This document shows positions 4,397-27,924 of a DNA stretch of 64,000 bases, in pieces. Both the position numbers and the translations under genes were made by a program. The DNA comes from an uncultured Rhodospirillaceae bacterium (GTDB lineage Bacteria > Pseudomonadota > Alphaproteobacteria > UBA9219): NCBI GenBank assembly GCA_964517415.1, contig CAZFCA010000004.1:18754-82753 (forward strand), given 5' to 3'. Each line of letters begins with the position of its first letter. Positions within the stretch are counted from its first letter, which is position 1. The notes under the pieces are model-generated. The model was not told where the DNA came from. It did not search any database and saw only the letters and a list, made by a program, of their open reading frames with translations.

Positions 4397-5356
4397 TTAT
4401 TGAAGGGTGCCTTTTGTTCCCTGAATGACCCATTTGTCGCCCTGCATTTTTATGTCCGTGATGCGGCCGATGCCTGGGAGCGAATCGCCGACCTGGACCT
4501 CTTTCAAATCGGTGGAATTGACACTTTTTGACACCCACGCCTGCCCATTGGAAGCGGCGCGCAAAACAAGGCCTGAAGCGGCTTTCTTCTGCGTTGCCCG
4601 CTCAACCTTTGCCTTGGGGGCGCGCTTGGGTTCGGACGCGGCGCGGGATGACTGTGGCGCACGGTCGGTTGCGGACAGCTTTTGTTCGATCTTTTCGACC
4701 TTGTCCAGAAGCTCTTTATAAGAAGGAACAGTCGCTTCCCCGCCAGCGGTGCTACCGCCCGTAAGAGAGTCGACAGATTTTTGAAGAGTATCGATGCGGC
4801 TTGTCAGAGCTTCGATGCGCTGCTCGGGGGTAGGTGGCGTCGGAACGGCCTCTGCCGAAGCAATGGGAACAGGAACGCTTGCCCCTGTGGGCGCGGCTGC
4901 GGCCGGCGCGCCCATGGGAACCGTCGTGACGGCGGCCGGAGAAACCGGCGCGACCGCGTCGGGCGCGAGGGGCGGCGGCGCAAGGATTTCGCTTTCCTTA
5001 GGCGCTTCGACCAAATTGGTTTTCTGGGCGGGCTGCGCTTGCTCTTGCGGGGAAGGAGGCGCGACAGGCAATTCCGCGACCGGCGCCGAGGGAATCGCGA
5101 AACTGTCCGCGCTGAATCCCTGTACCGAGGAGGAATTTCCGCTGAATTGCCACCAGGCGACCGCGCCCAAAAGGAAAACACCGCCTACCGCAGCCGCAAT
5201 CGGCAATACGGGCGAACGTTGAGACTTCGCAGAAGGCGGAGTTCTAGTATCTTCGACGGCAAACTCCTCTTCGGAAGGCAATTCGTGGACAGCGTCGCCG
5301 TCCTGAGTCGTGCCAGCGTCATGATCTTGCGGTTCTGAGCCAAAGGTATCAGTCAT
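4397..5356 (-). CDS. DotF/IcmG-like (IncI TraP-like) bitopic membrane protein
   Basis: The architecture matches DotF: acidic N-terminus, one TM segment (PVLPIAAAVGGVFLLGAVAWW), a Pro/Ala-rich spacer, a coiled coil, then a small C-terminal beta domain (GQAWVSK...VQVGDSLPGIGRITDIKMQGDKWVIQGTKG). That domain resembles the Legionella IcmG C-terminus as I recall it. The gene sits in the icmK-icmE-icmG order. Confidence 0.6.
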   Translation of the reverse strand: MTDTFGSEPQDHDAGTTQDGDAVHELPSEEEFAVEDTRTPPSAKSQRSPVLPIAAAVGGVFLLGAVAWWQFSGNSSSVQGFSADSFAIPSAPVAELPVAPPSPQEQAQPAQKTNLVEAPKESEILAPPPLAPDAVAPVSPAAVTTVPMGAPAAAAPTGASVPVPIASAEAVPTPPTPEQRIEALTSRIDTLQKSVDSLTGGSTAGGEATVPSYKELLDKVEKIEQKLSATDRAPQSSRAASEPKRAPKAKVERATQKKAASGLVLRAASNGQAWVSKSVNSTDLKEVQVGDSLPGIGRITDIKMQGDKWVIQGTKGTLQ

Positions 5357-5443
5357 TTATCCACTCCTGCGATTATTATTCAAGCCAAGGGCTTGCGGAC
5401 GCTCAAGATCAAAGGACTTAGGTCAGGATAGGCAAGACCGAAT

Positions 5444-7027
5444 TTATCGTCCCATGATTTGTTGAGCATAAGGCGAGTACCCCATAGTGCCATAAGACGC
5501 GCCGTAAGGATAGGGACTTATCGCCTGATTATATGGATTATTTATATATGCGCCCGGCGTGATGTTCCCATAATTGGGGGATCCGTAGCCGTTGACCGTC
5601 GTCCCAGGATAAAGCGGAACGTTTCCGCCCGTATAAGCGCCGTAGGAAGAAGTTCCATAAGGGGCGTTATAGGGGTTTGTGGCATTATAAACCGTGTTTG
5701 AACCAGGCGCGGGTAAAAACTGCCTTTGCGCCGTGGTTGGCATCGTGCTGGAAACGGTATCGGGGTCCATGACAGGGGAGAGAAAAAACAGCCCCATAGG
5801 CGTGCCGGCCGCGACGCGGACCAAAGGCTTTGTGATGTCGGCTTGATGCTGGAAGAAGCGTCCCATCGTTTGCGCGCCCGTGCCAATGCCGCTGTATAGG
5901 CCTTCGCGGATGCCTTCGCGGCTGTTGGTGACGATTGTCGTATTGCCGTTCATCACATAAGACACGTCGTTGTGCCCCATGGCGGAACCGAAGCCTTCCA
6001 GAAAGGCGGCGGCCGTGGGCAGGACAAGCCTTGTAAAATAGCGTTCATCCACTTCTGTGGCCATGCCGCCAAGCGTGGTGTTCGGGTCAAGGGCGATGGC
6101 GTCGATGGTGTAGTCTTTGCCCTTCTTGGCGGCGAGATGGAACCGGAGAACAAGGTATTTTTCATACCCTTCCGCCACTTGGAATGAGCCAACCACGCGC
6201 GCGCCGTTCAGCGGGCCGGAAACGATTTGCCCCAGAATAGGACCCGGAACGTCCGAATTGGCCTCCGTCAGCAATTGCGCATAGCTAACCGTGCCGGCGG
6301 CGACCACTTTCTTTGCCTTTGTCTGGTCGCTAGCCGCTTGCTTGGCCTTCAGCGCATTGGCAAGCGCTTGAGCTTGGCGTTCCTGTTCGGCCTTCAGTTC
6401 GTCCGCGCTGATAACTGTCACGCTTTTCATGCCTTGCGGAATCCAGCTTTGCAAAAGCTGGTTCATCTGGCGCTGCATTGCTTGGGCAAGCGAATCATCG
6501 AAAGGCTCGGGCGGGCGTTGCTGTATTTGCATCTGCTGCTGGGCGAGCTGCCGCCTTTGCGCCTCCATTTCCAGCCTCAAATCCCTTAACGGATCATCCT
6601 TGTTGTCGCCCATGCCGGGCAGGCCGACATCCGACTTTTGCCCGATGGGCGTCGGCATCGCGCTGCCGCCCGATTGAAGGGCGTCCCGCGAGCGCGTAGC
6701 CGTGGCTTTTTTCGTTTGCTCGATCATGTAAGGCGAGGCTTCGCCGCCCGGCGGCTCGCTAATATTGGGGGGCTTAATTAAATGGGCGATTTCGTTATTG
6801 GCGGGGCCACCAAAGAAACTGACAAGAGCTACGCCCACTAAAAAAACGCCGATAACCAGCACGAAGAATTTAAAAAGCGGACGATTGTGCCAGGCGTGCG
6901 CGATATTGCCCGAAAGGGTGTCTTTTTTATCGGGAGAATCCGAAACGGTTATCTCCGGCTCGGCAAATCCTTCGCCGTTGTTGATCTCGTTTCCGTTCTC
7001 GTTTTCGTTTTCAAAATCATTTGTCAT
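5444..7027 (-). CDS. DotG/IcmE-like VirB10/TrbI-domain protein with a Tyr/Gly/Asn/Pro-rich C-terminal tail
   Basis: N-terminal TM, Gln-rich coiled coil, then a DotG-type TrbI domain (NSDVPGPILGQIVSGPLNGARVVGSF, AIALDPNT, AAFLEGFGSAMG, VAAGTPMGLFF). The start overlaps the dotH-like stop by 11 nt (ATGACAAATGA). Confidence 0.85.
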   Translation of the reverse strand: MTNDFENENENGNEINNGEGFAEPEITVSDSPDKKDTLSGNIAHAWHNRPLFKFFVLVIGVFLVGVALVSFFGGPANNEIAHLIKPPNISEPPGGEASPYMIEQTKKATATRSRDALQSGGSAMPTPIGQKSDVGLPGMGDNKDDPLRDLRLEMEAQRRQLAQQQMQIQQRPPEPFDDSLAQAMQRQMNQLLQSWIPQGMKSVTVISADELKAEQERQAQALANALKAKQAASDQTKAKKVVAAGTVSYAQLLTEANSDVPGPILGQIVSGPLNGARVVGSFQVAEGYEKYLVLRFHLAAKKGKDYTIDAIALDPNTTLGGMATEVDERYFTRLVLPTAAAFLEGFGSAMGHNDVSYVMNGNTTIVTNSREGIREGLYSGIGTGAQTMGRFFQHQADITKPLVRVAAGTPMGLFFLSPVMDPDTVSSTMPTTAQRQFLPAPGSNTVYNATNPYNAPYGTSSYGAYTGGNVPLYPGTTVNGYGSPNYGNITPGAYINNPYNQAISPYPYGASYGTMGYSPYAQQIMGR

Positions 7028-8198
7028 GTTCTTCGTCCCTGGAAATATTCGCGCGCATCATGGCGCCATTGTCCGACAGCAAAAGAATGGGCGCAGTGCC
7101 TATTTCATATGCTGATGTGCCGTCAGCCGACGTCACGCAGGCGTTCCAGGCAGGGGACAAGAGGCTAAGGGGTGTGCGAAGATATATTTTTTCGCCGACG
7201 GCCCAGGCTTTGGTTCGAGCGTCCAGTCCCCTCACTTTAAGCGGAACGGCTGAATTCGGCGGCGCGTTTTCGAGGATCAGTGTAATTGTTTCGTCGCCCG
7301 CTTCAAGGCGTGGGCGCTTGATGATTTGCGGCTTGGCGTTGGGCCCCAGTTTGCCGATCCGCGCATCGTAACGAAGATCGACCGTGGGGCCTCCCGAAGC
7401 GAGACGGAAAATAACGGGCGTCGGCAATCCCTGCAAAAGAACCGAGAGATCGCCTGTGCCTACGCGGGTCAAAGGCATGATGCGGACGACATGGGTTCCA
7501 GCCTTGGTGGGCGAAACCTCGAAATTGCCGCCGATCCCGACGTCCATAATGGGCCACGGCTCGCCCGTCGCGTCGACAATGGCGATGGTGGAAACGAAAC
7601 CGGCGTTCAGGTTGACTTGAGGCGTTTCGGTGCCCGGGTCGAGCGTGATCGTCGAAACGCGCGTTTGCCCCTTAGGCGTGCCTTCAGAAGGCATTTGCGA
7701 GGCGTCTTGCGTTTGTTCCAGCCGCTGCATGAACATGTGAATCTGTTCGGGCGAAAGCGGCATTAGACCCATAGAAGCCTTGTCGAAAGACTTGGCGTTA
7801 TGCTCCTGTTCGCGCCTGCGCTGATCGGCTTCGGCTTGGGTTTGCGCCTCAAGCGCCGCCTTCTCGGCTTCTATGGCAAGCTGGTTAGCGTCGGCCGAAA
7901 AAGCGGGAGCGGGCGGCGGCGACGGAACATCTTCTAGCGCGATTCCTTGGGGGGTGCTTGACGGCAGCGCTGATTGCGAAGCGCTTTTTTGAGGAAGAGG
8001 GAGCGAATCCGTAATAGAGCCGGGCCTCGCGATGCTGTTGCTTGCGGCGAATGCGGGCAGGGGCGTTTCGGAAAAAGCAAGAAGCGACCCGATGGCCAGA
8101 AGGGATAAGGATCCCGATTTAAGGCGGAGACAGGGGAATGTTTTGCGCAAAGACGGCTCCGAATCAGATAATTGCTTTGATTCTTTTTTTGAGCACAC
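7017..8198 (-). CDS. DotH/IcmK-like (IncI TraN-like) T4BSS core-complex protein
   Basis: Long collinear motif matches to DotH/IcmK as recalled: LSPEQI, AGFVSTIAIVDATGEPWPI, GLPTPVIFRL, VDLRYDARIGKLGPNAK, YLRTPLSLLSPAWNACVTSADGTSAYEIGTAPILLLS. It has an N-terminal signal-like segment. The start is a non-ATG (GTG) codon and is uncertain. Confidence 0.85.
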   Translation of the reverse strand: MCSKKESKQLSDSEPSLRKTFPCLRLKSGSLSLLAIGSLLAFSETPLPAFAASNSIARPGSITDSLPLPQKSASQSALPSSTPQGIALEDVPSPPPAPAFSADANQLAIEAEKAALEAQTQAEADQRRREQEHNAKSFDKASMGLMPLSPEQIHMFMQRLEQTQDASQMPSEGTPKGQTRVSTITLDPGTETPQVNLNAGFVSTIAIVDATGEPWPIMDVGIGGNFEVSPTKAGTHVVRIMPLTRVGTGDLSVLLQGLPTPVIFRLASGGPTVDLRYDARIGKLGPNAKPQIIKRPRLEAGDETITLILENAPPNSAVPLKVRGLDARTKAWAVGEKIYLRTPLSLLSPAWNACVTSADGTSAYEIGTAPILLLSDNGAMMRANISRDEEHDK

Positions 8199-8400
8199 GA
8201 AAGTTAATAGGAAGTTTATATGCCTCGAGGAATTTAGGAATTGGATGAGGTGTTACAAAGATAGTTGCCGAAAAAATTAACCATATAGTCTGGGAAAAGC
8301 TCGTTTGAAGGGAGTCATAAGGCGCGAAACGAAGGTGAAAGCCCTCGGCGTTGAATGGTATTCTTTGGCTCAGGAAAGGAAAAGCTGATCAAATAATGCG

Positions 8401-9852: not shown

Positions 9853-10126
9853 AACCCCATGGAATAAACAGAACTAACCGCCGGAAAGGGAAAATCCCGA
9901 TACGAAAAGAGATAAAGAATGTTAGGGGGCGCGCGATAGAGAGAAATGACGACGGGAAAATCTAAGCAAATACTGTCGGCAATATCTCATATTTTTATTC
10001 CTATGCTAGCAAGAACGCGTGGAATGGCGGGCGCCAAAAAGATCGGAATAGCTTATATTTTAACCCTATCGTAGAGAAAAGCGCGTCAACGAAAGGCGGG
10101 CAGACCATAGATCAGAAAGGCACTCT

Positions 10127-10285: not shown

Positions 10286-10555
10286 CTAGGCCTTGCCGGC
10301 CTTTTTTGCGCGCTTGGCAAGACGCGAGGTTTTCCGAGCGGCCGTCCTTTTATGAAGCGTGCCTTTCGCCGCGCTTTTGGCGAGCGCGGACTCGGCTTTG
10401 CGCAAAGCCGCCTTAGCGGCAGACGCGTCGCCGGAAGCAAGCGCGGCTTCCGCGCCCTTGATCAAAGTGTGAATAAGAGAACGCCGCGCGCGGTTCTTTT
10501 CATTATGCTTGACCGTCTGGCGCGCCCGTTTTTTTGCGGATTTGTGGTTGGCCAT
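10286..10555 (-). CDS. rpsT: 30S ribosomal protein S20
   Basis: 89 aa, very basic, starting MANHKSAKKRARQ. It sits in the classical position upstream of dnaA. Confidence 0.95.
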   Translation of the reverse strand: MANHKSAKKRARQTVKHNEKNRARRSLIHTLIKGAEAALASGDASAAKAALRKAESALAKSAAKGTLHKRTAARKTSRLAKRAKKAGKA

Positions 10556-10994: not shown

Positions 10995-11960
10995 ATGCCA
11001 AATAAAATTGCTTCCATATCCTATGGTGCGGTATCTCTTGCGTTGGCTGCTGTTCTTCTTGCATCGCCCGCTTCTGCAGGTTTCCAGATGGGCTCTGGCG
11101 GTACGGCGGTACGATCTTCCGCCCCTCGGCCTGCTTCGGATATGCCCGAGGTAATATCCCCCATCGTCATTTCCGGCGAACCGCAGCCCGTTTCTCTTTC
11201 TGCCCCACCCCCGGCTCCTGCTGTTCTTCCTTCCGCGCCCGCGCCTACCTTTCAGCCTCCAGCCGCACCTGCGGTAGATGTTTCCAACGCGGTGGTTCGC
11301 GGCTTTGCCTCGCAGGTGCCGCTTGCGCTGGCCATGCGGCAACTTCTGCCCGTCGGCTATACCTTTTACATCGATCAGGATGTTGATACGAATGTGCTCG
11401 TTTCTTATCGTGGCGGAAGGCCTTGGCCCGAAACGCTTAAAAGCATGCTGGCTCCCGTCGGGCTTGTTGATCAGATACAAGGAACGGTCGTAACGGTAAG
11501 CCGTGTGCCTTCGGGCGCGCCTGCAATGCCAATCGCGGAAACAACGCCGCTGACACAGCCCGCGCCGGCCGCGCCAAGAACAATCGGCCAGCTAACTATC
11601 CCTGCGACCTCGGCGCCTCCTCCTCCGCAACGTTTTGCGGCGCCCGCTCCATTGGCAAGCGCGCCAATGACTCCGTATGCCGCTGCCGAGTCATGGTCGG
11701 CTCAGCGCGGCGACACGCTTCACAAGGTGTTGACGGCTTGGTGTCGCAAGGCCAACGTGGAGCTTCAGTGGCTTTCCGAGTACGACTATCCCTTGCAGGC
11801 TTCGGTCAGTTTTAGCAACGGATTCGAAGACGCTGTGCGCGGCCTTCTGTCGGGGTTTGAAAATGCCCAGCCCCAGCCGGTAGGAGAGCTGCATGCCAGT
11901 TCTATCGCAGGGCAAATGGTATTAGTCGTTCAGGTGCGCGGCAATAGTTACACGAATTAA
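10995..11960 (+). CDS. PilL/TcpQ-like periplasmic protein (type IVb pilus accessory)
   Basis: Signal peptide, Pro/Ala-rich linkers, an STN-like segment (VPLALAMRQLLPVGYTFYIDQDV...GTVVTV) and a C-terminal TcpQ-like domain (WSAQRGDTLHKVLTAWCRKANVELQW...FEDAVRGLL). It lies directly upstream of the PilN-like secretin, as in IncI/ICE pil clusters. Confidence 0.6.
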   Translation: MPNKIASISYGAVSLALAAVLLASPASAGFQMGSGGTAVRSSAPRPASDMPEVISPIVISGEPQPVSLSAPPPAPAVLPSAPAPTFQPPAAPAVDVSNAVVRGFASQVPLALAMRQLLPVGYTFYIDQDVDTNVLVSYRGGRPWPETLKSMLAPVGLVDQIQGTVVTVSRVPSGAPAMPIAETTPLTQPAPAAPRTIGQLTIPATSAPPPPQRFAAPAPLASAPMTPYAAAESWSAQRGDTLHKVLTAWCRKANVELQWLSEYDYPLQASVSFSNGFEDAVRGLLSGFENAQPQPVGELHASSIAGQMVLVVQVRGNSYTN

Positions 11961-11971: not shown

Positions 11972-13627
11972 ATGCCTTTGAAACGGACGTTGCTCATGAA
12001 AAAAGTTGTCGGACGCCTTACATTCTGTGCCCTTATCGCAGCAGTCTCCATCGGTTTTGGCGGCTGTGAATTGGCGGAAAAAACCCGAACTGAAATCGAT
12101 CGGCAAGGAGCCGAGGCTCGGACATCCCTCGATAATGCGCAAAACATCCGCACGACTTCTTTCGATCCCTTAAAGGTTACGAACAAAGTTTGGGGTGGCA
12201 ATGCTTCCTTACGCATGCAGCGCGGCATGCCCCTGCCATCGCGGTATGAAACCAATCGCGGCGTCACTCTCGTTTCTTCGGAGCCTATGTCCTTGGAAGA
12301 AGTCGCGAATGCGGTCAGTTCCCAAACTGGCATTCCCGTCCGCATGAGCGCGCTGTCGATACCCGGTCGCTCCGCCGCCGCTTCATCATCATCTTCTTCG
12401 TCGTCGTCTTCTTCGAAAGGCGGCATGCCGGTTTCCTACGAAGGGCCGCTGTCGGGGCTGATGGATAGAATCGGCGCCTATTTCGGTGTCAGCTGGCGCT
12501 TTGATGGATCATCTATCGCCATCTCGCGCTACGAAACGCGCATATTCGCGGTCGAAGTTATGCCCGGCACGCATCAAATTAACGAAGGCATGGAAGACGA
12601 CGAAACTAGCAGCAGCAGCAGCAGCGGCAGCAGCAGCGGCGGCGGCAGCAGCACCAAGGCGATTACGCAAAATTCCAAAGTTACGATGGATCTCAAATAT
12701 TGGGACGAACTGACGGCCGTCCTCAACTCGATTGTGGGCACTCAAGGCAGCGTCGTCGTTTCGCCGACGATGGGCACGATTACGGTTACGACAACGCCCG
12801 AAGTCATGTCGACAGTCGCCGACTATATCTCGAAGGAGAACAAACGTCAGGCACGACAGATCGCGATTAACGTGACCATATACAGCGTTAATCTTTCCGA
12901 ATCCGAAGATTTTTCGACCGCCTTCACTGCCTTCCTGCGCAAATATGCCGGTATTGGCGGCATAGATCCCATAACGGGAGGCGCGATGCCGGCTATCACG
13001 TCTCCATCTGTGATCGCCAGCGATATGGGCAGTTTAAACCTTGCTATCATCGACGGCCACAGAATGGGCGCGCGCGATGTTTTCAGCGCGTTGTCTGCCA
13101 TCGGGGATACGACAACCGTCGCCTCCTTCCCCATGACGACCCTGAACAATCGCCCTGTTTCGCGGCGCATCGGAACGGATACGACCTATATTTCCGAAGT
13201 GACGCAAAATACCACGTCGTCTTCATCCACGACGACCATTGCGACGCCGACCACATCGGTCGTTCACGACGGCTTTTCGCTTCAAATTACGCCGCGCATT
13301 CTGGATGATGGGCGCATCCTTCTTCAATACTCGCTTAGCTTGATCGCTCTTCAAACGATGGACACGGCGGGAACGGGCACGGATTACACAATCAGCCTGC
13401 CCGTGACGGACAACAGAATCTTCATTCAACAGTCCATGCTGCGCAGCGGGCAAACGCTTATGATCGGCGGCGTCGATCAGAAAAAGCTGGCGCAAAACAA
13501 GCAAGGCATAGGCGTGCCGGACAACATCTTCCTCGGCGGAGGGCAGTCCACCTACGACTCCCATGTCATGATGTTTATTTCGATAACCCCGAAGGTCATG
13601 GATATGGGGCTTGAGGAGCGCAACTAA
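11972..13627 (+). CDS. PilN-family type IVb pilus secretin lipoprotein
   Basis: Lipobox IGFGGC. C-terminal secretin domain (FPMTTLNNRPVSRRIG...GFSLQITPRILDDGRILL...LRSGQTLMIGGV). Two poly-Ser linkers. A GGAG RBS lies 8 nt upstream of the ATG. Confidence 0.8.
   Translation: MPLKRTLLMKKVVGRLTFCALIAAVSIGFGGCELAEKTRTEIDRQGAEARTSLDNAQNIRTTSFDPLKVTNKVWGGNASLRMQRGMPLPSRYETNRGVTLVSSEPMSLEEVANAVSSQTGIPVRMSALSIPGRSAAASSSSSSSSSSSKGGMPVSYEGPLSGLMDRIGAYFGVSWRFDGSSIAISRYETRIFAVEVMPGTHQINEGMEDDETSSSSSSGSSSGGGSSTKAITQNSKVTMDLKYWDELTAVLNSIVGTQGSVVVSPTMGTITVTTTPEVMSTVADYISKENKRQARQIAINVTIYSVNLSESEDFSTAFTAFLRKYAGIGGIDPITGGAMPAITSPSVIASDMGSLNLAIIDGHRMGARDVFSALSAIGDTTTVASFPMTTLNNRPVSRRIGTDTTYISEVTQNTTSSSSTTTIATPTTSVVHDGFSLQITPRILDDGRILLQYSLSLIALQTMDTAGTGTDYTISLPVTDNRIFIQQSMLRSGQTLMIGGVDQKKLAQNKQGIGVPDNIFLGGGQSTYDSHVMMFISITPKVMDMGLEERN
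12608..12652 (+). repeat. In-frame AGC/GGC trinucleotide tract inside the pilN-like gene
   Basis: (AGC)6 GGC (AGC)3 (GGC)3 (AGC)2 encodes a Ser/Gly linker. A second Ser run, built from mixed TCA/TCT/TCG codons, lies at about 12378..12417. Confidence 0.85.
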
Positions 13628-18795: not shown

Positions 18796-19015
18796 ATCAG
18801 AAGGCAGAAGGCCAGTATCAGGCATCAGAAAGCACGAGGAATAACCGAGCCATAATACCGATTTGGTTCCTTTTACCACGCCCCCAGCCCCCGACCGATA
18901 TGAATCGCTGGTACCCGCCATGCCTGTCCTGCCTTCGCAGGGAAAGGCTCTCGCGGCTCCATCCGTTTTCATTTTTTACGTGTAAAAACGCTCAAAAACG
19001 TTTTTCAGAAGACTG

Positions 19016-19975
19016 CTAATGGCTCATCGACACGACCTTGAGTATCGCCGGCCCCAAAAGAACGACGAACAGCGGTGGCAGAATGAATAGAATCATCGGC
19101 ACCGTAAGTGTCGCCGGCAGCTTCGCCGCCTTTGTCTCGGCCGCCATGATGCGGTCGTTGCGCATTTCGCCCGATAAAACCCGCAAGGCCTGAGCCAACG
19201 GCGTGCCATATCTTTCTGTTTGGATAAGCGTGTTTACAAGGCCGACCACGCCTGGCAAAGGCACGCGGTCGCCCAGATTTTGCAAGGCTTGGCTGCGCTC
19301 GGGGAAGAAGCTCAACTCGACCCCGGTCAAACCGACTTCCTCGGCCAATTCGGGGCAGGAAGGCTCCAATTCGCGACTTACGCGAGCCAAGGCCGCGTCA
19401 AGGCTCAATCCTGCCTCGGCGCATATCACCATCAAATCAAGCGCGTCGGGCATGGCCTTCCTTAAAATGGAAGCGCGCTTCTGGCTCAAATTTTTAACAT
19501 AAAGTGAAGGCAGCATGACGCCCAGAACAAGCATGCCGCAAAAAGCCAGCATGCGAGGCATAGTGTCGAAACTAAAGGCTTGCGCCACGAAAAGAACAAA
19601 AAAGGCGATAAACCCGATCAATACCGGGGAGACGATGCGAATCAAAAGATAGGTCATGACTGCCTCGCGCGACCGATAGCCTGCGCGCGCCAGTTTCAGG
19701 CGAAGCTCGCTCGTTTGTTTGCCTTGTTCGAGTCGCATCTTCTGCACAAGCCGCTTGATGAAATCCGTCTTGATCAGATTTTCTCGGCGGGATTTTTTCA
19801 GTTGCCGCTGCGCCTCCGTCAACTCTTTGCGCCTTTCCGCTATCCCTTTCAAGCGGTCTTCCAGAGGATTGTCGTCGACAAGCGCCATCCAGATCAAAAC
19901 CACGACAACGACGGCGCCCAATCCGCAAACAAAGGAAAGAACGGTCGGATCATGCAAGGCGCGGTCGAGCGTCAT
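19016..19975 (-). CDS. tadC: Tad pilus platform protein TadC
   Basis: GspF-like half-size membrane protein immediately downstream of tadB. Confidence 0.85.
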   Translation of the reverse strand: MTLDRALHDPTVLSFVCGLGAVVVVVLIWMALVDDNPLEDRLKGIAERRKELTEAQRQLKKSRRENLIKTDFIKRLVQKMRLEQGKQTSELRLKLARAGYRSREAVMTYLLIRIVSPVLIGFIAFFVLFVAQAFSFDTMPRMLAFCGMLVLGVMLPSLYVKNLSQKRASILRKAMPDALDLMVICAEAGLSLDAALARVSRELEPSCPELAEEVGLTGVELSFFPERSQALQNLGDRVPLPGVVGLVNTLIQTERYGTPLAQALRVLSGEMRNDRIMAAETKAAKLPATLTVPMILFILPPLFVVLLGPAILKVVSMSH

Positions 19976-19984
19976 CGCGTCTCC

Positions 19985-20959
19985 CTATAATTCAAAATTG
20001 ACCATTTTGAGCATTACGGCCCATCCCGTCGCCATCCAGCAAAGGCCGCCAGCCAATAAATACTGGCCCTTCGTCTGGGTGAATAGAATGGACACATAGC
20101 TATAATTCACGAACAAAAGCAGGGCGAACATGATAAAAGGCAACGAGCCGATAATCATCGCGCTGGCCTTGGCCTCTGACGACATGGCCTTGACCTTCTG
20201 CTTTAACTGCCGGCGCTTGCGGATAAGATCGGACAGGTTGCCCAGAGTTTCCCCCAGATTTCCGCCGGTTTCCTTCTGAATCGCCATGGCGATGATCAGA
20301 AAACGGAATTCCGGAACGCTGATGCGCCGCTCCACTTCCCACATTGAGGCTTCGAGCGTTTTGCCCATGCGCACGCCGTCGCTGACGCGCAAAAATTCGA
20401 TTCCCACGGGGTCCGGCAGTTCGCGACCGACGGCCGCGATGGATTCCGTAATCGGCAAGCCGGAACGAATGCCGCGGCACATGGTGTCGATAGCCTCGGG
20501 AAAGCTCGCGATAAATTTTTTATGGCGGCGCTTGACCATCCATCCGATGATAAAGTGGGGCAGGCCAAGCCCAAACATGATGGACAAAGGAAGGATCGCG
20601 GCCTTTTTTATCTCGAAAAAGTTCAACGCCAAATCAACCAGCAAAACCGACAAGGCGTTGGTCAAAAGATATTCGCCCAACGTCAGGCTACCCCCTGTCG
20701 CCGCAAGCCTGTCCCGCAATTTATCGGGATTCGGCAAAGCTTTCACAAGCCTGTCGAGCAAGGGAATGGCGCTGTCTTTCGTCGAGCGCACGCTGTTGAT
20801 TCGATCTGACGTGCTAATTTTATGCGCGACTTTTTGGCCTGCAACGCGCGCCAACCGCTTTTCGATGTTGAGGGACTCGCCGCCCAGCGCGTAGACGAGC
20901 AGCAAAACGAAGACCGACGCGCCGACCCCCAGCACAAGAGAAAGGAGAGTCGCGTGCAT
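19985..20959 (-). CDS. tadB: Tad pilus platform protein TadB
   Basis: GspF-like membrane protein downstream of cpaF. Confidence 0.85.
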   Translation of the reverse strand: MHATLLSLVLGVGASVFVLLLVYALGGESLNIEKRLARVAGQKVAHKISTSDRINSVRSTKDSAIPLLDRLVKALPNPDKLRDRLAATGGSLTLGEYLLTNALSVLLVDLALNFFEIKKAAILPLSIMFGLGLPHFIIGWMVKRRHKKFIASFPEAIDTMCRGIRSGLPITESIAAVGRELPDPVGIEFLRVSDGVRMGKTLEASMWEVERRISVPEFRFLIIAMAIQKETGGNLGETLGNLSDLIRKRRQLKQKVKAMSSEAKASAMIIGSLPFIMFALLLFVNYSYVSILFTQTKGQYLLAGGLCWMATGWAVMLKMVNFEL

Positions 20960-20961
20960 GC

Positions 20962-22590
20962 CTAGATCTCCATGGTTTCCATAAGCTGCTTGTCCAAACC
21001 GAAATAGGCGGCCTTGGGCAGGCAGTGCGGGCGCAGGCCGTGGTTCTTGAATTCGACGATCAGTCGGCCGTCCGGCATTTCGCCCGTGACGTCGCAGGTA
21101 TAAAGATCCTGCATGGTGATTACCTCGTCTTCCATGCCCGTGATTTCGGTCACATAGGTAACTCGGCGAGACCCATCGCGCAAGCGGCCTACTTGGATGA
21201 TCATATCCAGTGCCGAGGCTATTTGCTGCCTGATCGCGCGCGGCGAAAGATTGGCACTGGCCATGCCCACAAGGTTTTCAAGGCGCATGATCGCCTCGCG
21301 CGGGCGGTTTGCGTGCACGGTGGACATAGAGCCGTCATGGCCGGTGTTCATGGCCTGAAGCATATCCAGCGCTTCGCCGCCGCGCGTTTCGCCGACGATA
21401 ATGCGGTCGGGGCGCATGCGCAGAGCATTTTTTACGAGATCCCGCATGGTCACCTCGCCGCTTCCTTCAAGGTTGGGGGGGCGCGTTTCAAGGCGCACAA
21501 CATGCGGCTGCTGCAATTGAAGTTCGGCGGCGTCTTCGATGGTCACAATGCGTTCGCCATGATCAATCATCTGCGACAGCGCGTTTAAAAGCGTCGTTTT
21601 GCCCGATCCCGTGCCGCCCGAAATCAAGATATTGAGCCTAGATCGGCCTGCAATGCGCAGCAGCTTCGCCATAGGCGGCGAAAGGCTGTTAAATTTCAGC
21701 ATCGTATCCAGCGTTATTTTTTTCTTCGCGAATTTGCGGATCGTGATCGTCGCGCCGTCGATAGCCAGCGGAGGAATGATAATATTTACGCGGCTGCCGT
21801 CGGCAAGGCGCGCGTCGCAAAGCGGCGAGCTTTCGTCGATGCGCCGGCCGATAGCCGTGACGATGCGCGTCGCGATGGAAAGAACGTGCGTGTTGTCGCG
21901 GAATTGAACGTCGGACAGCGTCAGTTTGCCCTTGTTTTCGATGTATACTTTCTTGGCGCCGTTGACCATGATTTCAGAAATGCCTTCATCCGCCAAAAGC
22001 GGCTCCAGCGGCCCAAGCCCAAGCATATCGTCCAGCAATTGCTTGACCAGTTCGGCGCGTTCGGCGGCGTTCAATTGGATTCGCGTTTCATCCAAAAGCT
22101 CGGTTATCAGCCCCGTCAGGTCGCGCGAAAGTTCTTCGCGGGGCAATTTCGCGGCCGCGGAAGTGTCGATGCGCTCGAAAACGATGGGCTGCAATTTCAG
22201 CTTGGCCTGCTCTACGCTGGCGCGGCTTGAGTTGCGCATATAGGGATCGGCTGGCGCGGCGGGAACCGATATTTCCGGCATCGCCATCTTTTCAACCGGC
22301 GGCGAGACCTCGGCGATGGCCGGCGGCAAGGTTTTGACTGCGGCAACGCCATCGCTTTGCGCCATAAAACCGTTCACCAGCGCCGTGACAAGATCCCTTT
22401 GATCCAAAAGATTAAGCTCTATCTTCTGCGCGACGACGAACTGTGACACAACCGCCTTGGCTTCGCGCGCTATATCCACGCGATGCACCCACTTGACCTT
22501 TTCGGGAGGAATCTTTTCCTTGAGCGCGGACATTAAATGGTCGCGCAGGGCGGGAAGGCTCAAATCCGTGATGGGCGATTCGGCGTCCAT
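20962..22590 (-). CDS. cpaF: Tad pilus ATPase CpaF/TadA
   Basis: Walker [16 protein letters not shown], and the motifs [10 protein letters not shown] and [11 protein letters not shown]. Confidence 0.95.
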
Positions 22591-23855
22591 CAGGTTTTAC
22601 TCCGCGCCGCGCGCTTGATTTTAAGATTTTTAATTTTGCGAGCGATATCAGTCCAACGCGCAGCCTGCTTTTTCGAAACCGCCTGATCCTCGATATTGCC
22701 TAGATAGGCGGCAAGTCGGCGCAGTGATCTTGCCAATTCCGAATGAGGTGCGGCCGCGCCGATAGCCTTGCCGCTGTTCGATGCCGCCATCAAAGCCGCA
22801 GGATCTTCGGGTATGATAAAATCTACCGTGCCTTGGATGCCCTTTTCGAAAATCGCCTTTGAAACATGGCCGGCGGCGGATGCGTTCGTGCGTGCGCCGA
22901 CAACCGTGATCCGCGCCGTGCAACCAAGGTTATTGAGCGAATTCTTGATCCGGAGGGTGTCGCGAATGCCAGCCAGCGTCAAATCCGAAACAAGCACGAT
23001 TTCATCCGCCATTGTTTCCAGCCGTTTTTGCGAGGCCAGCATGTGCCGGGGAAGATCGATCAAAATGGCGTCGAAATTGCTGCGCATTTCCTTTAAAAGC
23101 GCGTCGATGGCCGCGCCGTCGATGGGAGCCAGCTCGTCCACGGCTTCTTCGGCGCATAATATCGAAAATTTATCGCTTTCTGGCATGATGGAACTGGCGA
23201 TCATAAGTGCGTCGACGCGATTGGGCGAACTGACGATATCGCGTAGGCCGCGCCCGGGCTCAAGATCAAGCGAAAGCGAACTTGTGCCGAATTGAAGATC
23301 CATGTCGAACAACGCCGCGCTCTTATTGTACGCATGCGATAAATTCCAACCGACGTTCAGGGCGATTGTGCTGGCACCAACGCCGCCGCGGGCGCCGATG
23401 AAAAGCGTAAGTCGCGCCTGCATGTTCTCGCCCTTGCCGGCAGACGGAGCGCGCAAGGCGGCGGCCAGCGCCTGATTCAACAAATCCTGCGACAGGGGCT
23501 TGACCAAGTAATCGACCGCGCCCGCGCCTAAAATGCGGCGATAAAGGAAGATGTCGTTTTCGGAACCGATGGCGATCAAGCGACAATCGCCCCCGCATAA
23601 ATTGGCAAGACGCGATATGACGGCGGCGGCATCGGCTTGGCCTTCGATATCGACAATCGCCATTTTTGGTGGCGCGGCTGATTCCAGCATTTGCGCAAAA
23701 ATATCGGGACCGCCTTGCTGAACCGCGGCTTTGGGAAAGCCCTGCCTTTCCGCCCAGCTGCGCAGCGATATAAGCGAGTCGTCATCGAGCACGAAACCCA
23801 TGAAGGCGCCGTACATCACCGGATCTTCGCTATGTCCTGAAAGCAATCCGCTCAT
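22590..23855 (-). CDS. cpaE: CpaE/TadZ (receiver-like N-domain plus ParA/MinD-like ATPase domain)
   Basis: Deviant Walker A GARGGVGASTIA. Correct position between cpaD and cpaF, with a 1-nt overlap with cpaF. Confidence 0.85.
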   Translation of the reverse strand: MSGLLSGHSEDPVMYGAFMGFVLDDDSLISLRSWAERQGFPKAAVQQGGPDIFAQMLESAAPPKMAIVDIEGQADAAAVISRLANLCGGDCRLIAIGSENDIFLYRRILGAGAVDYLVKPLSQDLLNQALAAALRAPSAGKGENMQARLTLFIGARGGVGASTIALNVGWNLSHAYNKSAALFDMDLQFGTSSLSLDLEPGRGLRDIVSSPNRVDALMIASSIMPESDKFSILCAEEAVDELAPIDGAAIDALLKEMRSNFDAILIDLPRHMLASQKRLETMADEIVLVSDLTLAGIRDTLRIKNSLNNLGCTARITVVGARTNASAAGHVSKAIFEKGIQGTVDFIIPEDPAALMAASNSGKAIGAAAPHSELARSLRRLAAYLGNIEDQAVSKKQAARWTDIARKIKNLKIKRAARSKT

Positions 23856-24328
23856 GGCGCTGCCGCTGCCCCCCCGGCGGCGGGCGAGCCTCCCGCCGTA
23901 ATATCGCCAGTCATTCCGGAGCTCGGGCTCGCCGCCGTCGTCGCGGCAATCGCGTTCGTATCCGCAGACGGCATCACAAGGCCGCGTGGCTGATTGTTGT
24001 CATAACGCCGCACGGCGCCCACCGCCATCACGCCGCGCTGGTTCGCCAGGTTGCGCCCCTCGACCAGATCGTTCGGCCTTTCGATCATGGCGGCCAAGTT
24101 CCTTGCATGGGCGCAGCCGTATTGAGGATAAGGCTGGTTGTCGAAGGGGTTCGTGACGGCGCCGCTCCAACTGGGGCACGGCGGCGGAGTCGCCTCGCCA
24201 TGCCCATCAACAGTTGGCGCCACGCGAATGGCGTAATCGGGTTGGGCCGTCGGCGGAAACCAGTTTGCGCACGCGGCCAAGGCCAACAGGCAGGGCGTAA
24301 GGAAAGCTAAAGTCAAAAAGCGATTCAT
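23852..24328 (-). CDS. cpaD: CpaD-like pilus assembly lipoprotein
   Basis: Lipobox LALAAC and a conserved GCAHARNLAAMIERPNDLVEGR segment. Correct position after cpaC. Confidence 0.7.
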   Translation of the reverse strand: MNRFLTLAFLTPCLLALAACANWFPPTAQPDYAIRVAPTVDGHGEATPPPCPSWSGAVTNPFDNQPYPQYGCAHARNLAAMIERPNDLVEGRNLANQRGVMAVGAVRRYDNNQPRGLVMPSADTNAIAATTAASPSSGMTGDITAGGSPAAGGAAAAP

Positions 24329-24331
24329 CTC

Positions 24332-26065
24332 TTACTCCACAATAAGGCCGCCGCTGCTTTTGTCGGCATCCCCCGCCGGATGCAAAACAAGCGGCGTCGC
24401 GCTTGCGGGAATGAGGGAGCCGGGAAGCGGCGGTATCGCCAGCGCGGTTTCCGCAGCATGGGATACAGGCGTAGACGTAGCGGCAGGCGTTTTTTCAGGC
24501 TTTTTTGCAACATACGCGGGATGGTTCGCCGACGATGCTTTAAGGGGTTCCGGCGCCTTTACCGAGGGTTCCGTCTCCGGCAGGGATTTCACTGCAATCG
24601 GCTCCGCTGTTTTAGTCAAAAGAGGCTCCGCGCTTTGAGAAAGCTCGGGCGCCATGGTCACAGGCTTGACCGGCGCGGCTTCGGGCGATTCCGAAACGGC
24701 CACGGGATCGCCGCTTGTCGGCCGCGTGCTCGGATCGGCGTTCGTATAGCGATGATCGAGAAGACGCTCGGATTCAGTCGGCGGCGCGAAGCCGTCCGTC
24801 GGCAGAGCGAGCTGCTTTTTCGAAGGCTTCACAATGTAGGGCGTGATGATGACAACAAGCTCGGTCTGGCCGTTGATAAAATGATCCGACCTGAAAAGCG
24901 TCCCTAAGACCGGTAGATCGCCGAGTCCGGGAAATTTCGTCACCGATTGCGTCTGGGAATTGTTCATAAGCCCCGCAATTGCGAAACTTTCCCCGCTTCC
25001 GACTTCGACGGTCGTCTCGGCCTTGCGCGTAATGAGGGCGGGAACCGAGATATTGCTGGAAACGACCGCGCCCGTTTGCGTCAATTCGCTAACCTCCGGC
25101 CGCACATGCAGGCTGATGCGGTCGCCACTGAGAAGCGTTGGCGTAAAGGCAAGCGAAATGCCGTATGGCTGGAATTGAACGCTGATCGTGCCGTTGCCTT
25201 GCGGAATGGGGATAGGAAACTGTCCGCCTGCAAGAAAGTTGGCTGTTTCGCCCGACATTGCGGTCAAGTTAGGCTCGGCCAAAATCGTCAGAAAGCCGTT
25301 TTGGGCCAAAGCGTCGATCATCGTGTCAACCGTGAATCTTCTGCCGGTGTACGCGGAACCGATCACATTGTTCGGCATGCTAAGGCTGGGATTGTTCGGC
25401 CTCGGGAAAAGCCCCGAATTGTTGGCGGCGCCGGTGTTGAAGACGCCAGCTCCCGCCATCTCCACGGCGTTGCCCGTCGCCAGGCCGAAGGTAATGCCCC
25501 CCGCGTGCAAAAGGCTTTGCCAGTTGAAGCCCAGCGAATTGTCGACCGTGCGCTGGACTTCGGCGAAGCGCACGCGAATATGAACCTGATTGCTTCCCGT
25601 GACAGTCGCGCGGTTGATGATATCGCCGCCTTGCGGCAAAAAACGCTGGGCGATTTTATAGGCGTCGGCGATGGCGGCAGCATCGTTCGCCGTGCCGGTC
25701 AAAACGATTCCGCCGGGAACCGAAGAAACCCTGATTGAACTGCCCGGAATGGCTGTCTTCAGTTCCTGCCGCAATAGAGACAAATCCTGCGACACGATCA
25801 GCGTGCGCTCGGCCAAAACCGCGCCTTTGCTGTCGGTGGCCATAAAGCTGGTCTCGCCGGTCCGCTTGCCGAAAAGCATAACCTGTGTGGGCGACATGAC
25901 CTGAACGTCGGCGATTTCCGGATTAGCGACAAAAACCGATGTCGCCGGCCCGCTTAGCATCAAGGATTCGCCGTGATCAACCGTTAAAGACATGGTTTTC
26001 GGCGCCGCCCATGCCGGCACCGCGAGGAACGCGAAGAAAGCGAAAAGAAGTGCGGCTTTTTTCAT
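24332..26065 (-). CDS. cpaC: Tad secretin CpaC/RcpA with a long Pro/Ala/Ser-rich C-terminal extension
   Basis: Signal peptide, N-terminal BON-like domain and a secretin domain (PGLGDLPVLGTLFRS...ELVVIITPYIV), followed by a low-complexity tail of about 170 aa. Confidence 0.9.
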   Translation of the reverse strand: MKKAALLFAFFAFLAVPAWAAPKTMSLTVDHGESLMLSGPATSVFVANPEIADVQVMSPTQVMLFGKRTGETSFMATDSKGAVLAERTLIVSQDLSLLRQELKTAIPGSSIRVSSVPGGIVLTGTANDAAAIADAYKIAQRFLPQGGDIINRATVTGSNQVHIRVRFAEVQRTVDNSLGFNWQSLLHAGGITFGLATGNAVEMAGAGVFNTGAANNSGLFPRPNNPSLSMPNNVIGSAYTGRRFTVDTMIDALAQNGFLTILAEPNLTAMSGETANFLAGGQFPIPIPQGNGTISVQFQPYGISLAFTPTLLSGDRISLHVRPEVSELTQTGAVVSSNISVPALITRKAETTVEVGSGESFAIAGLMNNSQTQSVTKFPGLGDLPVLGTLFRSDHFINGQTELVVIITPYIVKPSKKQLALPTDGFAPPTESERLLDHRYTNADPSTRPTSGDPVAVSESPEAAPVKPVTMAPELSQSAEPLLTKTAEPIAVKSLPETEPSVKAPEPLKASSANHPAYVAKKPEKTPAATSTPVSHAAETALAIPPLPGSLIPASATPLVLHPAGDADKSSGGLIVE

Positions 26066-26068
26066 GGC

Positions 26069-26926
26069 CTACCTGCGCCGTTCAAAGAAATTTTCGCTGA
26101 CCGTCTTGCCGCGCATCACCTGAACGCGGTGCAAAAGGCTGTCCTCGCCGTCCACCGAAGGGTACGAACTGCTGACGTCGCTATCCCACGTCGGATTCTT
26201 GGCCGAAGGCGGCGCCTTTTCATCGATGGCCAGCGAGCGTAAGACGAGAGAGATTGAGCCCCTGCCTGCCTGCATAGCCGTCATATCAATGGCCAAGGCC
26301 AGCCTTTCGGCATCTTTGGGGCTGACCTCAAGCGTCGCGATTTGCGCGACTTTCGGATCGGAAGATTGATTGTCGCTGCGCTGGTCAAGCGCAAGCACGC
26401 GCACGTTCTGCAAAATGGTTTCGCTGATGCGCCGCTCGTTAAGGCTGGAAACGTCCTTGCGGCTGAAGCTGTGGGTCAGAATGACATCCACCCTGTCGCC
26501 CGGGAAAATAAAGCCGGCCACCTCGGCGGTGGGCGAAAGAGCAATCGACATGGCGCGCATGCCGGGGGTCAACACGGCCGCCAGAAACCCGTGATTGTCC
26601 GGCGACGTGAGGCGCGAAACGATAAGCGGCTCTCCCGAGCGAAACCCGTCGCGCACAATAGAACCGATATAATCGGCCGGATTGTTCTTTCCCTTCACAA
26701 TCAGGTTGCTCGTATCCGCGTCCTTTACCCAGGAAACCCACTTGATATCCATATCCTTCAGAATCGCGCCGGTCGGAACGTCGCGCGCCGCGACGCCCAC
26801 CTCGACAGAGGAAACCGGCGCTTGCCCGTCGGTCGGCGGCGGCGCCATCAGCCCGTTCACGGCCAAAACGGTTCCAATGCCGACGAAGCCGGCGACGATG
26901 AGAAGAAGCATTTTTCTGGGTATCAT
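26069..26926 (-). CDS. cpaB: CpaB/RcpC Flp pilus assembly protein
   Basis: N-terminal TM followed by SAF-like and RcpC-like regions. Correct position between cpaA and cpaC. Confidence 0.85.
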   Translation of the reverse strand: MIPRKMLLLIVAGFVGIGTVLAVNGLMAPPPTDGQAPVSSVEVGVAARDVPTGAILKDMDIKWVSWVKDADTSNLIVKGKNNPADYIGSIVRDGFRSGEPLIVSRLTSPDNHGFLAAVLTPGMRAMSIALSPTAEVAGFIFPGDRVDVILTHSFSRKDVSSLNERRISETILQNVRVLALDQRSDNQSSDPKVAQIATLEVSPKDAERLALAIDMTAMQAGRGSISLVLRSLAIDEKAPPSAKNPTWDSDVSSSYPSVDGEDSLLHRVQVMRGKTVSENFFERRR

Positions 26927-27420
26927 GAGAGTCCTCTATCCGGCAGTAAAGGCTCAGCCAAAACGCGCAGGACGCATAATCCGCCGACGGCAATGGCGAC
27001 GCCGTAAGGAACGCGTGTCTGGGAAAGGGGCGTTTTTTCCGTCGCCTTGCGGTTTTTCGCATAGGCGGCCGCGAGGATAACAAGTGCCTCGACCCCTCCC
27101 GCAAAAACGGTGGCAAGCAAAAAAACATCGATCAAGCCTATTCCCGCCCATAAAGAGCCGGCGGCCAATAGCTTGGCATCGCCCGCGCCAATCCATTTCA
27201 TCAAAAAGGCGAAAAAACCCAAGGTGCCGATAACGACAAATGTGGCCGCATGGAGAATCCAATCGACCGGTTTGGGCGAGGAAAACGCGTATAAGAAAAA
27301 TAGAATAAGAAGACTAAGACTGATATAGTTTGGAATTAAAAACGAACGCGCGTCCTTCACCGCGGCCGCGATAAAAGCGGCGGCAGCCATAAAAAGGATT
27401 GCCCCGAAAAGAGCCGTCAT
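26923..27420 (-). CDS. cpaA: Prepilin peptidase CpaA (A24 family, short form)
   Basis: 165-aa polytopic membrane protein containing the GAGDAKL motif. It shares an ATGA-type 4-nt overlap with cpaB. Confidence 0.8.
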   Translation of the reverse strand: MTALFGAILFMAAAAFIAAAVKDARSFLIPNYISLSLLILFFLYAFSSPKPVDWILHAATFVVIGTLGFFAFLMKWIGAGDAKLLAAGSLWAGIGLIDVFLLATVFAGGVEALVILAAAYAKNRKATEKTPLSQTRVPYGVAIAVGGLCVLRVLAEPLLPDRGLS

Positions 27421-27450
27421 GCTCTCTATTCCCTTGAACGCATGTGAGAG

Positions 27451-27465
27451 TTAAGCCAGTTTTAA
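27451..27465. promoter_or_regulatory. CtrA-box-like motif TTAA-N7-TTAA upstream of cpaA
   Basis: TTAAGCCAGTTTTAA lies about 30 nt upstream of the cpaA start. Confidence 0.35.
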
Positions 27466-27593
27466 GAGACTACCAACGGTGTGGTTAATGAGGGGTGAAC
27501 AAAAGTTGAAAAAAGGACAATAAAAACCATAGGCTAAGACATTTTCTTAACTTAATGCCTTATCCATACACAGATGCCCGTTTTTATTGGAAA

Positions 27594-27652
27594 ATACCAA
27601 CCGCTCAACGCATGTGTTGCGAACGGTGCGAGGAACTTATCGCTCGCTAGAG
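27594..27652 (+). repeat. Possible degenerate fragment of the TAATACCAAC MITE-like family
   Basis: ATACCAACCGCTCAACG...GGTGCGAGGAACTTATCGCTCGCTAGAG resembles the 5' third of the copies at 34547 and 52587. The similarity was judged by eye only. Confidence 0.3.
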
Positions 27653-27705
27653 TTAGCGCAGACTTGGGCAGAACCTATATCCTGTAGGTGAAAACAGGCC
27701 TGCCC

Positions 27706-27736
27706 ACAAAAAGAGATGCCGGCTGTTAGGCCGGCA
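27706..27736 (-). terminator. Rho-independent terminator after flp
   Basis: Stem TGCCGGC / GCCGGCA with a 6-nt loop, followed on the minus strand by ATCTCTTTTTGT. Confidence 0.65.
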
Positions 27737-27762
27737 CCGTCTTCTCAACTCTAATTTCTCGT

Positions 27763-27924
27763 TTAGAGAGATGATTGAACAGAGTTGAACACACCGCTCA
27801 ACTTGGTTCCCAGTGCCGTAACCGCTGTGATGATCACGACGGCGATAAGGGCGGCAATCAGGCCGTATTCGATGGCCGTAGCGCCTTCTTCGCTCTTAAT
27901 AAAACGGGTTACTAGTTTACGCAT
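27763..27924 (-). CDS. flp: Flp-family type IVc pilin (53 aa; not in the supplied ORF track)
   Basis: Manual translation gives MRKLVTRFIKSEEGATAIEYGLIAALIAVVIITAVTALGTKLSGVFNSVQSSL. It contains the Flp processing motif G/ATAIEYGLI. A strong SD (AAGGAGGAG) lies 4 nt upstream of the ATG. Confidence 0.85.
   Translation of the reverse strand: MRKLVTRFIKSEEGATAIEYGLIAALIAVVIITAVTALGTKLSGVFNSVQSSL

Follow-up and report, generated by a model that had tools for sequence, protein, structure and literature searches.

Probable displaced fragments of a chromosomal type IVB secretion system and an R64-type pilus module around dnaA in a Micavibrio-like alphaproteobacterium

Gene content of the window

The stretch analysed here, referred to as the window, comprises 64,000 nucleotides (64 kb) of contig CAZFCA010000004.1 from an uncultured Rhodospirillaceae bacterium. 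It contains a dotH-dotG-dotF triad related to the type IVB secretion systems (T4BSSs) of the Dot/Icm and IncI kinds, a pilL-N-O-P-Q-R operon of the type IVb pilus family and a Tad/Cpa pilus locus, with dnaA and rpsT located between the first two (Table 1). An earlier note on this DNA, made from the sequence alone, had interpreted the Dot-like and Pil-like sets as parts of a single trans-envelope apparatus. Every gene of its map (dotHGF, dnaA, rpsT, pilL-N-O-P-Q-R and Tad) was found at the place given, by domain and profile matches that were weak for DotF.

Table 1. Features of the window, with the profile match or other remark for each.
Feature	Position	Strand	Match or remark
secA	1329-4073	-	downstream of dotHGF
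DotF/IcmG (IncI TraP)-like	4397-5356	-	weak profile matches and conserved synteny
DotG/IcmE (IncI TraO, VirB10 family)	5444-7027	-	TrbI domain, NF033900
DotH/IcmK (IncI TraN) outer-membrane core protein	7017-8198	-	PF12293, 9.1e-69
dnaA	8401-9852	-	Bac_DnaA, 8e-70, with N- and C-terminal domains; bystander housekeeping gene
Terminator-like hairpin, strong, 10 pairs (8 G-C)	10247-10225	-	just downstream of rpsT
rpsT	10286-10555	-	Ribosomal_S20p, 1.1e-23; bystander
PilL-like, TcpQ domain and signal peptide	10995-11960	+	PF10671 (TcpQ), 1.5e-12
PilN-type lipoprotein secretin (type IVb pili)	11972-13627	+	TIGR02520, 3.5e-76
PilO2, type IVb pilus accessory protein	13627-14862	+	PF06864, 5.9e-24
PilP-like, C-terminal GspC/PilP 'HR' beta domain	14846-15682	+	TIGR03021, 3e-7
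PilQ-type assembly ATPase (GspE/PilB family)	15776-17701	+	T2SSE, 4.1e-54; GspE, 4.7e-52
PilR-type inner-membrane platform (GspF/PilC family)	17698-18795	+	T2SSF, 8.2e-23; last gene of operon
Tad/Cpa locus: tadC, tadB, cpaF, cpaE, cpaD, cpaC, cpaB, cpaA, flp	19016-27924	-	converges on pilR
flp pilin	27763-27924	-	G/ATAIEYGLIA motif

Of the components by which a T4BSS is recognized, the window contains DotH and DotG. The DotH protein had 342 homologues, nearly all in alphaproteobacterial metagenome-assembled genomes (MAGs), and its profile matched the Legionella IcmK/DotH structure 6X62 in the PDB at 1.6e-55. The true start of the protein is probably near 8150, because the database version is 377 amino acids long. 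The DotG protein matched Pfam TrbI (4.1e-11), the NCBIfam DotG/IcmE model NF033900 (2.9e-46) and TraO (3.3e-20). It is without the pentapeptide-repeat region known in Legionella DotG, and its NF033900 score was below the full-length cutoff because this region is absent. Past the TrbI/VirB10-like domain, at residues ~420-527, we noted a tail of ~110 amino acids in which Tyr, Gly, Asn and Pro are abundant. The DotF-like protein consists of an N-terminal transmembrane segment, a Pro/Ala-rich linker, a coiled coil and a small C-terminal beta domain. Its matches to the NCBIfam models IcmG_DotF (NF038218, 1.9e-4) and TraP (2.4e-4) were both far under the cutoff, and a profile of 27 homologues gave a weak match (4e-4) to Legionella DotF in 7MUC, collinear over all three regions.

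The components that mark an R64-type thin pilus were represented by PilN with PilL, PilO2 with PilP, and PilQ with PilR. The PilN protein matched Secretin (9.5e-13) and Secretin_N_2 (2e-7) and has a probable lipobox, GFGGC. The 251 homologues of PilO2 carry the NCBI name 'type 4b pilus protein PilO2', and the TIGR03021 score of the PilP-like protein was 31.5 bits, slightly under the cutoff of 34.65. A PilL-like gene is placed ahead of the secretin gene likewise in four of the relatives described below (L052, L141, L144 and L147) and in the Bosea plasmid pBSY19_1. There was no credible open reading frame between pilR and the Tad locus (18795-19016), no type IVa/b prepilin motif anywhere in the window, and no PilS prepilin, PilV adhesin or PilU prepilin peptidase in its 64 kb. 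Homologues of DotC, DotD, DotB and IcmT were likewise absent from the window when it was searched with these proteins and the products of neighbouring genes from L052 and L057, which gave only weak ATPase cross-matches to PilQ and CpaF, and DotE/P was not found in the window either.

The two sets had been described as transcribed divergently away from a block with only dnaA and rpsT. The 2.8-kb spacer does contain only these two genes, but both read in the direction of dotHGF and secA, and the sole divergent junction is the 439-bp gap between rpsT and pilL. Scans for promoters and terminators gave nothing over chance level except the hairpin after rpsT, which implies that rpsT is transcribed apart from dnaA-dotHGF.

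The window is core chromosomal DNA from an uncultured alphaproteobacterium of the Micavibrio kind (Micavibrionales). Its GC content is even throughout the region and the other 36 kb encode housekeeping functions (gyrB, typA, plsX, fabH, hemD/Y, bamE) plus a porin, which argues against a mobile element. No mobility genes (relaxase/oriT, integrase) were seen in the window or in the flanks examined, although no search was aimed at relaxases. Almost all relatives of DotH, PilO and DotC came from MAGs labelled Alphaproteobacteria, Rhodospirillaceae or 'Bdellovibrionales', and two of them (L033 and L039) bear the name Micavibrio.

Dot and Pil genes in related genomes

The surroundings of these genes were compared in 51 loci with a DotH relative, taken from a scan of one genome per species, and in 80 loci from a metagenome scan with the DotO-like protein as query. 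The closest relative of the window was L001, with a DotH protein that is 85% identical. Amino acid identities among the relatives ranged from 48% to 85% for DotH and from 60% to 87% for DotC, and were about 75% for PilQ and PilR.

The order dotH-dotG-dotF was kept in all 51 loci as far as the contigs reach, and the DotF-like gene directly followed dotG in 45 loci, without exception. This conserved synteny supports the assignment of the third gene as dotF, for which the sequence evidence is weak. The triad was embedded in the canonical order of Dot/Icm region II, DotJ-DotI-DotH-DotG-DotF-TraQ-DotE/P-DotN-DotO-DotM-DotL, in 28 of the 51 loci, where it was preceded by two genes of the DotI/IcmL family (PF11393, 3.7e-39 and 9.9e-27). 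It was followed by genes for a TraQ-like protein (NF033883, 5.7e-17), small membrane proteins and IcmJ/DotN (NF038221, 5.5e-28), and further downstream by genes for a Walker-A protein of ~1030 amino acids at the DotO position and for DotM (PF23127, 1e-47), with a DotL-type coupling protein after DotM in L064. The DotO-like, DotM and DotL proteins were present in L022 to L047 and in the 80 metagenome loci. The canonical order was observed in 29 of the latter, while 14 were split, in that dotH was missing although the contig reached 7.5 kb or more upstream, and 37 were too short to judge. The split loci show that the system has often been fragmented rather than lost.

The flanking genes of the split DotO-DotM-DotL loci showed no useful synteny by which to link them to the clade of the window, their only match being a gyrB homologue near DotO in L111 (63% identity). 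Two loci with DotO near dnaA-rpsT (L072 and L116) were considered as kin of the window and rejected, since their dnaA genes were only 42-60% identical and thus belong to other lineages. It was also noted that a small GcrA-like protein (PF07750, 9e-4) is encoded before DotJ-DotI-DotH in L043 (770-1225), with an equivalent in 22 loci, which hints at cell-cycle-linked regulation.

None of the 28 loci with the canonical order belonged to the group of 15 species loci in which dnaA was located directly upstream of dotHGF, mostly with secA downstream (rpsT-dnaA-dotHGF-secA). In 12 loci (L003-L017), a gene for a small membrane protein of the MAPEG family (139-151 amino acids) was inserted on the opposite strand between dnaA and dotH; it was absent in the window, L001, L013 and L015.

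A second cluster in the relatives encoded DotD (PF16816), DotC (PF16932) and DotB (TIGR02524, 4.4e-125), usually together with IcmT. DotB was identified in L052, L057, L141, L144 and L147, of which L057 is the DotD-C-B-IcmT locus of the closest relative, situated on the contig that also carries dotHGF-dnaA-pil (CAYVNS010000001.1), with ~22 kb between it and the pil/Tad block. The Dot set thus has lipoproteins and an ATPase of its own. Immediately after DotB-IcmT in L057 (12570-13829), we noted a gene for a pentapeptide-repeat protein of 419 amino acids, which may be the repeat module that Legionella carries inside DotG. A conserved gene block was also noted upstream of DotD (L052, 878-3371; L057, 7840-9392; L141, 6116-9123), with genes for a cytoplasmic protein of 270-300 amino acids without a family match, an SLT-type lytic transglycosylase, a membrane protein of ~90 amino acids and, except in L057, a DsbC-like thioredoxin with a CPHC motif. 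Beyond this block were several genes for Cys-rich secreted proteins.

At least 4 genomes (L052/L053; L141/L142/L145; L144; L147) contained dotD-dotC-dotB(-icmT) contiguous and co-directional with pilL-N-O-P-Q-R, at a spacing of ~230-1300 bp. Furthermore, about 22 DotC matches shared an identical longest-contig size with PilO matches, many of these contigs being only 9-25 kb long, and 8 contigs contained both DotH and PilO. The pilR gene was followed by two prepilins in L145 (KRKAFTLTE and KKRGFTLTE; PF08805, PilS) and by PilS in L147. The fused clusters and the PilS genes after pilR indicate that the Pil module encodes a true type IVb pilus and is tied to the T4BSS. The earlier idea that the two sets are co-inherited and functionally linked was thereby supported, by shared contigs, a common lineage and the fused clusters. 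Its companion, that each set lacks what the other could supply, is true of the window and not of the lineage: DotD, DotC, DotB and IcmT occur in the closest relative, DotI/J, DotE/P, DotN, DotO, DotM and DotL surround the triad in members of the order, and PilS-type pilins, which would provide the fibre subunit, are encoded after pilR in relatives. Each set therefore has its canonical partners among the relatives.

Following the PilS-type pilins in L145, we noted a protein of 512 amino acids (18440-19978) that starts like a type IV pilin, with KRFGFTLVELAIV, and ends in a Peptidase_S74 domain (intramolecular chaperone). It is a plausible candidate for a PilV-like tip adhesin. Homologues of this protein and of its neighbour adjoin DotM in L066 (15619-16977).

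The position of the pil operon relative to the triad was variable. It was located beside rpsT in a single one of the 51 species representatives, the closest relative L001, and 3.6 kb past secA in L013. The distance to the triad was ~27 kb in JAMFSS010000006.1, and ~145 kb and ~190 kb in two further contigs of 585 kb and 218 kb, respectively. The dnaA-flanking layout, whose conservation the earlier note proposed to check, is accordingly not a general feature of these genomes. With pil-rpsT adjacency in 1 of 51 species and variable distances elsewhere, the 'supercluster around dnaA' has arisen by rearrangement locally.

Likeness to known systems

The IncI1 plasmid R64 pairs a T4BSS with the PilI-V thin pilus, which brings cells together. 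The R64 proteins TraH-I-J-K are equivalent to DotD-C-B-IcmT, and TraM-N-O-P-Q to DotI-H-G-F-E. As in R64/ColIb-P9, both modules occur together in the lineage studied here, the traHIJK order is the dotDCB-icmT order of L057 and L141, and the order PilL-N-O-P-Q-R-S...V is the same. The NCBIfam models for IncI1 TraO, TraP and TraQ and the PilN, PilO2 and PilP families also matched the Dot and Pil proteins. The two sets had been suggested to form an apparatus not yet described, but a T4BSS with a PilL-V thin pilus is the architecture of R64, and the machine is not categorically new. There are also differences to R64. The genes are chromosomal here, scattered among housekeeping genes and inherited vertically across an order, and dotDCB-icmT is upstream of pilL, as compared with downstream of pilV in R64; the pilin genes of the window are detached. 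No relaxase/oriT, shufflon, PilM, PilU peptidase or PilI-K was seen, with no aimed search for relaxases.

The relatives share with the Dot/Icm systems of Legionella and Coxiella the order icmM/L-icmK-icmE-icmG-icmC/D-icmJ-icmB and the dotD-dotC-dotB operon. They differ in that IcmS/W/Q/R, DotK and DotU/IcmF were not seen here and in the missing DotG repeats, and Legionella, an intracellular pathogen as opposed to the bacterial predator considered here, is without a PilL-R pilus module. The type IVb pilus clusters of PAPI-1, of integrative conjugative elements (ICEs) and of R64-like elements have the same order of a TcpQ-family protein, secretin, PilO2, PilP-like protein, ATPase and platform. 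Unlike the operon in the window, these clusters lie inside mobile elements and extend into genes for a PilT-like ATPase, a pilin and PilV, and PilO identity was only ~35% over the N-terminal 170 residues. Among plasmids, the nearest counterpart of the pil operon was L146, in pBSY19_1 of Bosea sp. RAC05 (493060-529545). It encodes a TcpQ-family protein, secretin, PilO2, ATPase, platform, second ATPase and PilV within what seems to be an integrated element, with genes for a tyrosine recombinase, a replication initiator and topoisomerase III. The type IVA secretion system of Xanthomonas/Stenotrophomonas and the T4BSS of Pseudomonas putida IsoF (PMC9519443) offer an analogy only, as contact-dependent toxin delivery into Gram-negatives; in contrast to those bacteria-killing systems, no effector, immunity gene or killing phenotype was identified here.

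The small C-terminal beta domains of the DotF-like and PilP-like proteins had been thought to follow a similar pattern. A single-sequence AlphaFold2 model of the PilP-like domain (pLDDT 75) best matched the HR domain of GspC in its complex with GspD (3OSS_C; probability 1.00, TM score 0.80, root mean square deviation 1.4 Å), followed by PilP and LspC. The corresponding model of the DotF-like domain had no significant fold match in the PDB, the best being an MCE domain (E 0.4), and the sequence likeness between the two domains in a profile-profile alignment (hhalign) was marginal (probability 42%, E 2.7e-4, 25 columns). A resemblance of DotF to PilP has already been published for Legionella, where the DotF C-domain is reported to resemble PilP/GspC (10.1101/312009; PMC8486379). 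Legionella DotD carries a secretin-type N0 domain (PMC2951367), so that a DotF-type domain would be expected to pair with DotD within the T4BSS, and not necessarily with PilN.

One earlier study mentions pT4SSi in passing for seven marine MAGs of Micavibrionales (PMC9418006), and no dedicated description of a Dot/Icm system in Micavibrio was found beyond this. The new elements are the conservation across the order, the fusion of dotDCB-icmT with the PilL-R(-PilS) operon and the fragmentation around dnaA, for which no earlier description was found.

Interpretation, alternatives and neighbouring loci

The dotHGF and pil sets of the window are likely to be two pieces, moved from their original places, of a chromosomal T4BSS of the IncI/Dot-Icm type with an R64-type thin-pilus module, beside an independent Tad locus. 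The lineage would have inherited both modules vertically, and its less rearranged members carry them in two clusters. The first has the order GcrA-like-DotJ-DotI-DotH-DotG-DotF-TraQ/DotE/DotP-like-DotN-DotO-DotM-DotL. The second begins with unknowns-lytic transglycosylase-DsbC-like-small transmembrane protein-DotD-DotC-DotB-IcmT and continues with PilL-PilN-PilO-PilP-PilQ-PilR-PilS-type pilins-large pilin-headed adhesin candidate. In the sub-lineage of the window these clusters would have been broken up, with dotHGF left between dnaA and secA, and in the window and its nearest relative pilLNOPQR would have moved across rpsT-dnaA, severed from dotDCB-icmT and the pilin genes.

The DotC/D/F/G/H proteins would form the outer-membrane core of a secretion channel that would draw its energy from DotB/DotO/DotL, and the PilN secretin machine would make a type IVb pilus for contact with target cells, the part that the thin pilus of R64 plays in IncI conjugation. 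By analogy, the target of an epibiotic predator would be its prey, with the pilus securing contact and the T4BSS delivering effectors. The gene identities, the synteny in relatives and the co-location were observed; we infer that this genome retains the remaining T4BSS and pilus parts, that the two machines cooperate and that they have any role in predation. It is an unanswered question by what means epibiotic predators of the Micavibrio kind breach their prey and feed on it, and a chromosomal T4BSS conserved and under selection across the order, linked by its genes to an R64-type pilus, is a testable candidate for a machine of prey contact and effector delivery. It would also represent a natural IncI-like pair of secretion channel and thin pilus domesticated outside plasmids. 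For genome scanning, it may serve as a caution that seemingly partial and complementary sets in one window can be pieces of dispersed canonical systems.

Several points weigh against this account. The 64-kb window yielded no DotI/J, DotN, DotO or DotL/M proteins and no genes for the pilins of the Pil module, and in all 15 loci of the dnaA-linked sub-lineage the triad was without DotI/J and DotN/O neighbours, so that this clade may have lost the rest of the T4BSS instead of dispersing it. The putative DotO was assigned by its position, size and Walker A motif, and had no Pfam, NCBIfam or PDB sequence match. No homologue of DotA/TraY was identified anywhere, with no aimed search made. Co-occurrence in the same genome was judged from shared contigs and not from a full phyletic profile, and the role in predation would follow from analogy. 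The genome paper on Micavibrio aeruginosavorus reported no type IV secretion system and an incomplete type II secretion system (T2SS; PMC3189940).

It is unlikely that the two sets are chance neighbours, i.e., that the Pil genes encode a type IVb pilus that works by itself, or else the T2SS described as incomplete in Micavibrio, with no tie to the Dot genes and a proximity that arose from shuffling near dnaA. On some contigs 145-190 kb separate the two sets, there are R64-type pil clusters with no adjacent Dot genes, as in the Bosea plasmid, and the thin pilus and T4BSS channel of R64 are physically separate machines. The T2SS of Micavibrio was moreover annotated without GspC/G/H/K (PMC3189940). 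However, chance does not readily place dotDCB-icmT and pilLNOPQR next to each other in the same orientation in at least 4 distinct genomes, or DotC and PilO together on many short contigs, and pilin-like genes also adjoin DotM in L066.

We give only a slim chance to a more far-reaching variant, in which the T4BSS of the sub-lineage would have been pared down to the DotC/D/F/G/H core plus DotB/IcmT and coupled physically to PilN/PilQ/PilR as a single prey-contact apparatus. The HR-type domains of DotF and PilP might then each bind the N0 domain of either DotD or PilN, and the order-wide T4BSS and pilus may be the long-sought attachment and feeding device of the Micavibrio type.

Still more doubtful is the original proposal of a single new trans-envelope apparatus built from DotH/G/F and PilL-R, each set completing the other, with the Pil set as ATPase, platform and secretin, the Dot set as periplasmic and outer-membrane scaffold, and the HR domains of DotF and PilP docked on the N0 domain of PilN. 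It would account for the isolated triad between dnaA and secA in the 15 loci, and for a pil operon within 4 kb of the dnaA-triad block in two arrangements (window/L001 and L013). The GspC/PilP HR fold modelled for the PilP-like domain, its weak alignment with the DotF-like domain and the fusion of dot and pil genes into one cluster in other genomes are also consistent with it. It is contradicted by the occurrence of DotD, DotC, DotB and IcmT in the closest relative and lineage-wide, by the N0 domain that DotD itself bears for DotF-type domains (PMC2951367; 10.1101/312009), by full T4BSS clusters and DotO-DotM-DotL islands across the order, by the pilins after pilR in relatives, and by a dnaA-flanking layout confined to 1 of 51 species. 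It is scarcely tenable that an IncI-like conjugative element integrated long ago and has since decayed, leaving these genes without a working machine. The genes do form small islands among housekeeping genes and the window is without pilins, DotC/D/B and inner-membrane parts, but all nine open reading frames are intact and full length, and the conservation of the proteins over 51 species-level genomes and 80 metagenome loci indicates purifying selection rather than decay.

The Tad locus is a separate and self-sufficient adhesion pilus outside the Dot/Pil set. All nine components that were sought (CpaA peptidase, CpaB, CpaC secretin, CpaD, CpaE, CpaF ATPase, TadB, TadC and Flp) were found, as in the Tad/Cpa systems of Caulobacter and Aggregatibacter. 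Pfam matches (T2SSF twice, T2SSE at 2.2e-67, ParA-like/REC, Pilus_CpaD, Secretin with BON, RcpC and Peptidase_A24) and the Flp sequence motif upheld the description of a complete locus that converges on pilR and contains the only prepilin peptidase of the window, the A24-type CpaA. It was also noted that a tadC homologue (58-61% identical) is located 2-3 kb downstream of dotF in L031 (12145-13101) and L037 (15779-16723), and Tad genes thus recur near Dot genes in other arrangements. Finally, a DcaP-like porin of 498 amino acids is encoded beside a bacterial WD40 beta-propeller protein of 392 amino acids amid the housekeeping genes of the window (52585-55348).

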